This document shows positions 1,332-4,300 of a stretch of DNA of 64,000 nt, in pieces. The first letter of the stretch is position 1. The number at the start of each line of letters is the position of its first letter. The DNA is from Escherichia coli (GTDB taxonomy: Bacteria > Pseudomonadota > Gammaproteobacteria > Enterobacterales > Enterobacteriaceae). Where the stretch lies: NCBI RefSeq assembly GCF_029227855.1, contig NZ_CP074356.1, one strand, 5' to 3'. Position numbers: made by a program.

Positions 1332-4300
1332 GGTTATGCGCTGATGCCTGATGCGGCGCGGGCGCGTCTTATCATACCCTGGAAGTCTGCGCCCGAATCG
1401 TAGGCCGCCTCCGCTATATTAACTGGCATTGGCAAATTACTCGTCACTACCTTTATTCATGTTTTTTTGGTCTTCATCCGGATAATGTTTTTTTAGATAT
1501 TCCAGGACGTTTTTATTGACCTTGTGTTGCGTATACACCCACCCTTTCCAGTAATCAGGCTGGTCCAGGTAAACTTCTGGCGGAATGGTGAAATCAGAAA
1601 GCGTTAACCATTCGGCTAATAGATCGGGGTTTCGTTTCTGGATTAACTGCAACAGCATAATCAGTGACATAGCTGAGGCAGGAGCCGTACTATCGCCACT
1701 TAAATATTTCCACACTGTTGACCGGTTCGAACGAAAAAGGATCGGTAGCAATGCCCGGTCCAGATTCATTTCATTAAAAATCTTCTCAAATTCATTCATT
1801 TAAATTTTCCTGCCTGGCGTAAACCTCTTAAAAATTGAGATTTATCAAAGAAACGCATTTTAGCACACATCAGGAACCGCTTCACGTTTAGTCCAGAAAC
1901 AGAATTTATTTCGCTTATCAAAACAAGTCTTTACTCTTTTTTACATTGAAAGAGCACAAAATGATTTTCGATTTTATTTATATAAGAAACATTTTTTGTT
2001 TCTTATTGGTGGTGTTTACGCTTACACCAGACAAAAATGCGCTTTACATCACACAAATGGCGGCGTAGATTTCGATTAAATTGCAACGCAGTTTATTTCT
2101 TAAAACAATATTATTTGTTTCTTATAGAAACATTAATGCGACTTATTTTGAACAAGAGAAAATGAATGAAAACTGTAAACGTAGCTTTACTGGCACTCAT
2201 AATTTCAGCAACATCCAGCCCTGTTGTTTTAGCTGGTGATACCATTGAAGCGGCGGCAACAGAGCTTTCAGCCATTAACTCTGGCATGTCGCAATCGGAG
2301 ATTGAGCAGAAGATTACCCGCTTTTTAGAACGCACAGACAACAGCCCCGCTGCGTATACCTATTTGACTGAACATCACTACATCCCTTCTGAAACACCTG
2401 ATACCACTCAGACTCCCACTGTCCAGACAGATCCTGACGCAGGACAAAAAACCGTTGCCGCTACAGGTGATGTACAGACAACCGCCCGTTATCAGAGCAT
2501 GATCAACGCCCGACAGTCTGCGGTAACTGATGCCCAGCAAACGCAAATTACAGAGCAACAGGCGCAGATCGTAGCCACACAAAAAAACGCTCGCCGCGAC
2601 TGGAGATACGCAAAATACTGCGCATTATCAGGAGATGATTAATGCCAGACTGGCGGCTCAAAATGAGGCTAATCAGCGCACTACCACGGAACAAGGGCAG
2701 AAAATGAATGCACTGACAACCGATGTGGCAGCACAACAGCAAAAAGAAAGGGCTCAATACGATAAACAAATGCAAAGTCTGGCGCAGAAGTCTGTCCAGG
2801 CACATGAGCAAATTGAAAGTCTGAGACAAGATTCCGCACAAACGCAGCAACAGTTAACCAACACGCAAAAACGGGTCGCAGATAACAGCCAACAAATTAA
2901 CACGCTCAATAACCATTTCGATTCTCTGAAAAACGAAGTTGAGGACAATCGTAAAGAAGCCAATGCGGGAACTGCATCAGCCATCGCTATCGCCTCACAA
3001 CCACAGGTGAAAACCGGTGACTTGATGATGGTGTCAGCGGGAGCGGGAACCTTCAACGGTGAATCTGCGGTGTCTGTAGGAACATCTTTTAATGCCGGAA
3101 CGCATACGGTACTTAAAGCAGGTATTTCTGCGGATACACAATCTGATTTCGGTGCGGGTGTCGGCGTGGGATATTCGTTCTAATTTTAACAGCAATTTCT
3201 TATTCGCAATTTTCCGTACATTATTTAAGGTTAACAATGATGAATAGCTCCATTAAATCGTTTTCCCTGCTGGCGGTTATATTACTGGCTGGCTGTAGTT
3301 CACCCACTTCCCGCATCGCAGATTGCCAGGCGCAGGGCGTCAGCCATGACACCTGTTATCTCGCAGAACAACAGCGTCAGACGGCTATTTTAAGTGCATC
3401 CGAGGCGCAGGCATTTAAAAATGCAGAAGCCGCACAACATGCCCAGGCGGCAAAGAAAGCCATTTATAAAGGATTTGGAATGACCTTTAGAATGAGCAGT
3501 AAAAACTTTGCTTATCTCAATGATTCATTATGTGCAATTGATGAAGACAATAAAGATGCCACTGTTTATCAGTCAGGTCTGTATAACGTCATTGTTTATC
3601 ATCACACAGGAAAAGTCGCCTTAATGAAGGAAGGTCAATTTGTGGGTTATTTAAAATGAAGGAGCAAAGGAAAATACCCCTGACGCATATTATGATTATC
3701 GGTGCGTTTATTTTTGCCTTCTTGCAAGTAGTATTATTAGCCTCCCTGGTTCACGCTGTGAATGTTAACAACGAAATCCAGGAAGGCTTATTTCAGTCGG
3801 GGCGCATTATGGTAGAAAGTTTGCAGCATATTCTTTCGGTGCAAACGGGGATTAACTGATTTTCACCCCGCCCGATGATGACAGCAGCCGGAGAGATTTT
3901 CGATAATCGGGCAGTCGGCGCTGTCATCACCAGGGCAGGCATTCGCCAGCGCCAACAGCTGGTTGCGCATGGATTGCAGTTCTTCGATATGTCGCTCGAT
4001 CTCCGCCACTTTCTCCAGGGTGCGACGTTTGACGTCGGCACTGTGACGCTGCGGATCGTTAAACAGATTCACCAGTTCGCCGCTCTCTTCCAGGTTAAAG
4101 CCCACCTGGCGCGCCTGGCGCAGTAAGGTCAGTTCGTTGAGATGCTGCTGCGTGTAGGTTCGATAACCATTTTCGCTGCGCATCGGCGGCGTCACCAGCC
4201 CCTTCTCTTCATAGAAGCGGATTGCTTTGCTGGTCAGGCCGGTAATTTTTGCTACATCGCTAATGTTCATCGTTCGCGCAACGCCTCCTGTGCTTTATTA

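Follow-up and report, generated by a model that had tools for sequence, protein, structure and literature searches.

The operators through which Aca proteins, C proteins and antitoxins regulate their own genes usually sit at the promoters of those genes. In systems of the pap type, a long AT-rich spacer carries multiple repeated sites and receives inputs from global regulators. The locus described here shares features with both. It is a spacer of 366 bp (positions 1800-2165) in a stretch of 64,000 nucleotides from Escherichia coli (assembly GCF_029227855.1, contig NZ_CP074356.1), referred to below as the window. On one side lies the gene for a protein of 120 amino acids (1437-1799, minus strand), and on the other the divergent gene for a YadA-family trimeric autotransporter, or adhesin (2166-3183, plus strand). 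The spacer holds five repeat units, four of them with the core AGAAAC. With moderate confidence, based on sequence comparison, these units may be regarded as operators for the cassette's own helix-turn-helix protein, which would control both itself and the adhesin gene.

The same pair of genes is known from E. coli O157:H7, where the small gene is z0640 of O island 29 and the adhesin gene is z0639, also called gmrA. The mRNA of gmrA peaks at 37 °C and pH 7 when osmolarity is low, and is lower at 30 °C (PMC5826968). Adding NaCl or KCl reduces it, as does a pH other than 7, and contact with host cells raises it transiently (PMC5826968). Deletion of z0640 leaves motility and the mRNA of fliC and motA unchanged in O157:H7 (PMC5826968). 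The region upstream of gmrA is not analysed in that paper (PMC5826968) or in later reviews. The spacer controls a gene that is treated in the literature on enterohaemorrhagic E. coli as a motility regulator, and this control region has so far not been dissected.

Repeated sites between the divergent genes

The spacer has a GC content of 30.9%, against 54.9% in the window. The original prediction described it as an AT-rich divergent region between the 120-amino-acid open reading frame and that of the adhesin, containing two palindromes that share a half-site, and this description is borne out. The first palindrome occupies positions 1982-2006, with ATAAGAAACA at 1982-1991, TTTTT at 1992-1996 and TGTTTCTTAT at 1997-2006; it was read from the sequence, and a repeat search agrees. 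The second, also read from the sequence, occupies positions 2116-2132, with TGTTTCT at 2116-2122, TAT at 2123-2125 and AGAAACA at 2126-2132. The 10-mer TGTTTCTTAT is found in both, at 1997-2006 and at 2116-2125.

Chance expectation was assessed with shuffles of the spacer that preserve its dinucleotide composition. A perfect palindrome with arms of at least 10 bp and a loop of at most 12 nt is seen in 2% of these shuffles. Two or more palindromes with arms of at least 7 bp are seen in 25%, so the second palindrome by itself is unremarkable. Statistics of the most frequent k-mers, used as a generic test, were also unexceptional; such tests are uninformative here because shuffled AT-rich DNA yields many poly-A/T k-mers.

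The shared half-site stands out far more clearly. AGAAAC or its complement GTTTCT occurs six times in the 366-bp spacer, where 0.31 occurrences are expected, and none of 2000 shuffles reaches six. The spacer alone holds 6 of the 29 copies present in the whole 64-kb window. Allowing at most one mismatch, GAAAC-N7-GTTTC occurs twice against 0.027 expected (P=0.0002), and GTTTC-N5-GAAAC twice against 0.026 expected (P=0.0004), an excess of about 75-fold in each case. The window contains a second exact copy of GTTTCT-N3-AGAAAC at 53881-53895, within a GC-rich open reading frame for a membrane protein of 125 amino acids (53699-54076, minus strand), and this copy is taken as a chance occurrence.

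Aligning 27-mers around every forward core resolves five units of about 27 bp, all in one orientation on the plus strand and spread over about 300 bp. Unit 1 (1840-1866, ATTTA-TCAAA-GAAAC-GCATTTT-AGCAC) has its AGAAAC core at 1849-1854, and unit 2 (1886-1912, GTTTA-GTCCA-GAAAC-AGAATTT-ATTTC) at 1895-1900. The core of unit 3 (1976-2002, ATTTA-TATAA-GAAAC-ATTTTTT-GTTTC) lies at 1985-1990. In unit 4 (2073-2099, CGATT-AAATT-GCAAC-GCAGTTT-ATTTC) the core position is 2082, and E. coli has GCAAC at 2083-2087. Unit 5 (2117-2143, GTTTC-TTATA-GAAAC-ATTAATG-CGACT) has its core at 2126-2131.

The two palindromes are parts of these units. The first is formed by the core and right arm of unit 3 (GAAAC-N7-GTTTC), and the second by the left arm and core of unit 5 (GTTTC-N5-GAAAC). 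Unit 2 contains one dyad of each type, each with one mismatch. More generally, the flanks of the units in the Escherichia lineage bear partial inverted copies of the core. The comparison points to the AGAAAC hexamer in a single orientation, and not to the palindromes, as the conserved unit.

Of 5426 complete E. coli genomes, 1413 (26%) carry the spacer, in every case as a single collinear copy on the chromosome and in the same orientation. Eight E. coli alleles, 89-100% identical, were aligned. All eight share the cores of units 2, 3 and 5 unchanged, and in unit 1 a single allele differs, by one substitution in the core. The palindromes are less constant. Seven of the eight retain arms of 9-10 bp in the first, which is degraded in the other (right arm ATTTC), and the left arm of the second reads GTTGC in three of the eight.

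Two promoters may be recognised. A predicted extended -10 element of the small gene lies at 1857-1865, reading TGCTAAAAT on the minus strand, which carries it, and ATTTTAGCA on the plus strand; it is identified from sequence and conservation. Either TGnTAAAAT or TGCTATCAT, the latter being the Symbiopectobacterium form, is kept at this position in Pseudocitrobacter, Symbiopectobacterium and loci L015, L016, L019, L020 and L028. For the adhesin gene, a promoter scan predicts a sigma-70 promoter on the plus strand at 2043-2071, with TTTACA at 2043-2048, a gap of 17 nt and TAGATT at 2066-2071. This is the only sigma-70-like site that the scan reports in the spacer, and it lies within the longest block that is invariant across the eight alleles (2032-2076). 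From these elements we infer transcription starts near 1850 for the small gene and near 2078 for the adhesin gene.

The units would thus be placed at both ends of the control region. The core of unit 1 starts 2 nt downstream of the predicted -10 of the small gene, on its presumed start site. The centre of unit 3 is about 84 bp upstream of the presumed adhesin start, and unit 4 is at about +5. The core of unit 5 lies 39 nt before the adhesin ATG, at about +46 to +53 in the presumed 5' untranslated region.

Several other candidate elements were considered for the spacer and rejected. The first palindrome is absent from a scan for intrinsic terminators, and its stem is A/T but for one G-C pair. 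Two small open reading frames (40 amino acids at 1946-2068 and 42 amino acids at 2037-2165) have frames that are broken by indels between E. coli alleles. The exact GGCGGTAG core of an RfaH ops element is absent from the conserved GGCGGCGTAG block, and on inspection the conserved blocks have the wrong spacing for sigma-54 or sigma-E promoters.

The small protein and its pairing with adhesin genes

On the evidence of its structure model, the 120-amino-acid protein can with confidence be assigned to the XRE-type helix-turn-helix proteins, as a member of an uncharacterised family. The model has an N-terminal XRE-type helix-turn-helix in a five-helix bundle, followed by a helical C-terminal extension of about 55 amino acids. 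AlphaFold prediction from 15 close homologues alone was unusable, with a predicted local distance difference test (pLDDT) score of 59; confidence came from remote family members, and with these added the model reached a pLDDT of 92.9 and a predicted template-modelling (pTM) score of 0.82. Its best structural matches are Aca1 and Aca2, C proteins, and the antitoxins HigA2 and MqsA. The C-terminal 55 or so residues are without a structural match.

The sequence matches of the protein itself are weak, the best being MqsA_antitoxin in Pfam (E=0.12) and an Xre antitoxin in a profile search of the PDB (E=0.74). Among 22 family members searched against the MqsA, Xre-like-HTH, HTH_3 and HTH_26 models, one reaches E<=0.001 per model, the best value being 3e-5. 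The family is very small: one database has 21 clusters of it, and a second has 23 representatives out of 1.84 billion.

The pairing of this gene with an adhesin gene extends well beyond E. coli. The small gene and a gene with a YadA_anchor domain are found divergent, with a spacer of about 230-410 bp, in at least eight lineages that differ in chromosomal site and flanking genes. They include Pseudocitrobacter, where the cassette occupies the same chromosomal region with a different junction, two metagenomic lineages, three further NCBI assemblies and a subfamily with 32% protein identity. All paired related cassettes have the YadA_anchor domain in the partner gene. There is no adhesin gene opposite the small gene in Symbiopectobacterium (a 174-amino-acid gene without a Pfam match), in L025 and L026 (a 133-amino-acid gene) or in L020 (no called gene); in these places the adhesin gene was either lost or never present. 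The very distant relative P0039 is not beside an adhesin gene.

The hexamers are conserved along with the pairing. In an alignment of nine spacer sequences from different genera, with a mean column identity of 71%, the AGAAAC of units 1, 2 and 5 and the ribosome-binding site are invariant, and the promoter block GCTTTAC...GGCGTA is nearly so. Unit 2 reads CA[G/A]AAAC in all of them. At the core of unit 4, E. whittamii and other genera have GAAAC, and GCAAC is found only in E. coli. AGAAAC is enriched in each of five cassette spacers from outside E. coli (P<=0.004), and 34 of the 42 copies in cassette spacers are oriented toward the adhesin gene. The distance from the G of the last GAAAC to the adhesin start codon is 38-41 nt in six cassettes, and in two spacers copies of AGAAAC are exactly 22 bp apart.

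The dyads have a narrower distribution. The exact GAAAC-N7-GTTTC of unit 3 is found in seven of the eight E. coli alleles, Escherichia sp. E1V33, E. whittamii and Symbiopectobacterium, and every Escherichia allele, like Symbiopectobacterium, retains the N7 dyad of unit 2. The near-identical spacer of the Escherichia-like locus L014 has a 1-bp deletion between the half-sites of the unit 3 dyad. The exact N5 dyad is present in Escherichia and, outside it, only once, at a different position in the metagenomic locus L015; the left arm of unit 5 is absent in most other genera. Flanking arms that match in at least four of five bases accompany 25% of units against a background of 2%, mostly in Escherichia, and a 15-bp operator model for all units, RTTT-N7-AAAC, fails outside that genus.

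Further support may come from a comparison of motif with protein. Proteins similar to that of E. coli have the recognition helix NRST[VIL].K[YW], and their spacers carry AGAAAC. The recognition helix of L028 and L029 is PRNTIFNYL; their spacers are without AGAAAC and have AGGAACA and AAGAACA instead, including a GAAC-N7-GTTC dyad with the same 7-nt spacing as in the first palindrome. L025 combines the helix QRSTLNKWV with four copies of TAGCTA (P=0.015), and L019 combines HRSTSHKWL with three copies of GCAGAAA in reversed orientation. The motif would thus follow the protein subfamily, as expected of a binder specific to the cassette, and the comparison is suggestive only. The L019 spacer (2770-3060, minus strand) also contains two palindromes that resemble Fur boxes, TGATAATTATCA and TTATCATGATAA, and neither is present in the E. 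coli spacer.

Regulation of the divergent pair

If the units are operators for the small protein, the spacer would be the shared control region of a divergent cassette, with promoters that read leftward into the small gene and rightward into the adhesin gene. The XRE-type protein would recognise AGAAAC half-sites. By binding unit 1, on its own presumed start site, it could repress its own synthesis, and from units 3, 4 and 5 (about -84, +5 and +46) it could keep the adhesin promoter repressed until relieved, whether by occlusion, as a roadblock or through looping between distant sites. Repression seems the likelier sign of regulation, because the sites lie at and downstream of both presumed starts. 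Host factors probably act on top of this, at a CpxR-type box (1930-1944) and through H-NS on the AT-rich DNA. The published expression pattern of gmrA would fit inputs from envelope stress, osmolarity and H-NS.

This proposal modifies the original one, in which a dimeric regulator, plausibly the divergent small protein, binds the palindromes as its operators. The half-site is indeed enriched in the spacer and kept across genera amid diverged DNA, the pairing with a YadA_anchor gene persists in all well-sampled relatives down to 32% protein identity, and AGAAAC occurs at the predicted promoter of the small gene itself. What does not carry over is the role given to the palindromes. Their half-sites have opposite polarity and their spacing differs (N7 against N5), so a single symmetric dimer cannot treat both as equivalent operators. 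Since dyad partners are mostly missing outside Escherichia, binding as a monomer or head to tail fits better than the classical XRE dimer.

Several points weigh against operators of this kind. The core is just 6 bp long, and its flanks carry little information. A simple symmetric dimer would fit at most one of the palindromes, and the partners that would complete a dyad are mostly those of a single genus. The protein of the window has no significant sequence match in Pfam, NCBIfam, PHROG or the PDB. The motif differences between subfamilies rest on few sites in few loci. Sites reported by the promoter scan are no more numerous than in shuffles (4 against 5.3), and the transcription starts are predictions. 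Finally, the sole published test of z0640 concerned motility, which is uninformative on adhesin expression (PMC5826968).

An alternative that we consider unlikely takes the repeats as sites for response regulators of the host: CpxR at GTAAA-N5-GTAAA, and an OmpR-like protein at tandem 10-bp half-sites ending in AC. Such sites would couple adhesin expression to surface contact, pH and osmolarity. In units 2 and 5 a GTTTA or GTTTC partner does precede the core by exactly 10 bp, and GAAACAT matches the core of the C1 half-site for OmpR at ompC. The spacing is not that of OmpR in units 1 and 3, where a TTTAT partner starts 9 bp and not 10 bp ahead of the core, and GTTTC is without the AC common to OmpR half-sites.

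The case for CpxR is made by a box on the minus strand at 1930-1944 (GTAAAAAAGAGTAAA), a perfect match to the consensus GTAAA-N5-GTAAA (PMC4846824). The window contains two exact matches, the other at 32560-32574, where 0.06 are expected per 64 kb. The box is a tandem direct repeat, the kind of site bound by OmpR/PhoB-type response regulators, and on the opposite strand the Pseudocitrobacter loci retain TTTAC-N5-TTTAC, as L016 nearly does. The responses of gmrA mRNA to NaCl and KCl, to pH and to host-cell contact also agree with such inputs (PMC5826968). On the other side, the repeated motif varies between cassette subfamilies, which would be unexpected at least for loci in Enterobacterales, where OmpR and CpxR are strongly conserved, and regulation by host proteins leaves the constant presence of a dedicated helix-turn-helix gene unexplained. 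Host regulators and operators for the small protein are partly compatible, as CpxR at its own box could act beside the local regulator.

It is quite improbable that the spacer has no specific operator at all and is simply acquired AT-rich DNA silenced by H-NS, with repeats that are relics of ancient duplication together with low complexity. Its GC content (31% against 55%), the presence of the island in 1413 of 5426 complete E. coli genomes and the ordinary k-mer statistics would suit this explanation. TCGATTAAATT at 2071-2081, directly after the predicted -10, resembles the high-affinity nucleation motif of H-NS, TCGATAAATT. Many genes silenced by H-NS are expressed less at 30 °C than at 37 °C. 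The adhesin mRNA shows the same difference (PMC5826968). Silencing does not explain why the AGAAAC count is never reached in shuffles of the same dinucleotide composition, or why the hexamer, its orientation and its distance from the start codon persist even where the rest of the spacer is too diverged to be aligned easily. Moreover, H-NS silencing and specific operators can coexist.

Very unlikely is a role of the second palindrome as an RNA hairpin in the adhesin 5' untranslated region, acting on translation or mRNA stability. The palindrome lies between the predicted start (near 2078) and the ribosome-binding site, and its 7-bp stem is part of the minimum-energy fold, but folding of the untranslated region equals that of shuffles (z=-0.14). 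In several E. coli alleles the left arm has an unpaired substitution (GTTGC), and most other genera lack this arm altogether, while the right arm is invariant and there is no compensatory change. A scan of the spacer against Rfam gave no match, the sole match (naRNA4 at 1301-1378) being outside it. With ordinary folding, no covariation and no Rfam match, a hairpin or riboswitch was rejected.

An invertible promoter segment resembling the fimS switch, with the inverted copies as its ends, is barely credible and was also rejected: imperfect inverted arms of 35 nt (1957-1991 and 2116-2150) enclose 124 bp with the predicted adhesin promoter, but they are just 71% complementary, no recombinase gene lies in or beside the cassette, and the second orientation is found in none of the 1413 E. 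coli genomes that carry the spacer.

O island 29 and comparison with known systems

The cassette is part of an insertion in the E. coli chromosome. The gene order in the window is qmcA, ybbJ, the insertion and cueR, followed by a type I secretion system whose adhesin is a giant repeat protein. Four genes make up the insertion: the 120-amino-acid gene on the minus strand and, on the plus strand, the YadA-family autotransporter gene, a lipoprotein gene of 140 amino acids (3237-3659, z0638) directly after it, and an open reading frame of 67 amino acids (3656-3859) that overlaps z0638. The insertion is O island 29 (OI-29) of E. coli O157:H7 EDL933. When published deletion-primer arms (PMC5826968) are mapped in an O157:H7 genome, those for z0640 flank the 120-amino-acid gene, those for gmrA (z0639) flank the YadA-family coding sequence exactly, and those for z0638 flank the lipoprotein gene. 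The spacer thus lies immediately upstream of gmrA as published. The naRNA4 match is a REP-type element that scores 66 bits, above the gathering score; it falls at the island's edge, in the gap that separates ybbJ from the end of the small gene.

The adhesin carries a complete YadA_anchor domain at its C-terminus (PF03895, E=1.6e-11, model positions 1-60 of 60, residues 279-338 of the intact 338-amino-acid allele). Its N-terminus, MKTVNVALLALIISATSSPVVLA|GD, looks on inspection like a Sec signal peptide, and the middle region gives only weak matches of the coiled-coil type to SMC, ATG16 and TMF_DNA_bd. In the window the open reading frame is split into 158 and 182 amino acids by a +1 frameshift, where a run of seven A (2581-2587) replaces six. 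At this position 1029 of 1030 other matching complete E. coli genomes have the intact run of six, and one has seven. A run of seven that rare indicates a private mutation or a sequencing error, and phase variation at the run was rejected on the same count.

Adhesin length ranges from 227 to 583 amino acids across strains and genera (E. coli alleles L003-L006; L009-L011; L015-L019), and the start positions in RefSeq differ by up to about 1 kb. This variation suggests modular gain and loss of stalk repeats, possibly with N-terminal disruptions in some strains. In the genome of L014, the adhesin gene, qmcA, ybbJ and neighbouring transport genes are fragmented, with insertion-sequence remnants close by, which indicates extensive pseudogenisation in that lineage.

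The lipoprotein gene z0638 and the 67-amino-acid open reading frame accompany the adhesin gene in other genera too. In NCBIfam they give weak matches to a secretion chaperone of the XAC1346 family (E=0.0017) and to an Lpp-like alanine-zipper lipoprotein. By analogy with SadB and SadA of Salmonella, a helper role in export of the adhesin is conceivable.

Beside cueR, from 4267 to 11117 and beyond, are genes for an HlyD-type adaptor and an ATP-binding cassette (ABC) exporter and an open reading frame of more than 1170 amino acids for a repeat-rich secreted protein. This region is a type I secretion adhesin locus. It is absent or reduced in some strains, and L007 keeps just a fragment of the HlyD gene.

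If the small protein acts on the units as proposed, an orphan protein family would gain a function. A conserved module of regulator and adhesin, common to several enterobacterial genera, would be defined, and there would be a concrete reason to revisit the effect of the island on flagellar expression.

Among described systems, the locus of the OI-29 and GmrA study (PMC5826968) is identical to the present one, and the expression data given there are the output of the spacer's promoter region. The closest parallels for the protein are the anti-CRISPR-associated Aca1 and Aca2, the controller (C) proteins of restriction-modification systems, and the antitoxins HigA2 and MqsA, which have a similar size (about 60-130 amino acids) and an N-terminal five-helix helix-turn-helix. 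As in those systems, the gene adjoins its presumed target and the protein has no obvious ligand-sensing domain. Short repeated sites lie at its own -10 element and start, with more over the promoter of the partner, the sites being predicted ones in the present case. There are also differences. The partner here is a divergent gene for an outer-membrane adhesin and not a toxin, anti-CRISPR or restriction enzyme in the same operon, and five dispersed hexamers, mostly in the same orientation, extend over about 300 bp in place of one or two tight palindromes.

PapB and PapI at pap, and other fimbrial pairs of regulator and adhesin, resemble the locus in that the gene for a small DNA-binding protein is divergent from an adhesin gene. 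Unlike pap, the spacer when read for GATC sites has none, the 1413 genomes give no sign of phase variation, and the protein has another fold. The partner is a trimeric autotransporter and not a chaperone-usher fimbria. A further likeness, which is one of consensus match alone, is to CpxR-regulated promoters, where an exact GTAAA-N5-GTAAA box lies upstream of envelope-related genes. Here the box is about 85 bp from the start of the small gene and about 140 bp from that of the adhesin gene, both starts being predicted.

The arrangement is thus familiar in kind, with a small XRE-type regulator and repeated sites between divergent genes. Such arrangements are very common in bacteria, so a specialist would be only moderately surprised by this one. 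Its novelty lies in the protein family, so far uncharacterised, in the regular association of that family with small YadA-type adhesins, and in the dispersed array of hexamers in the same orientation.

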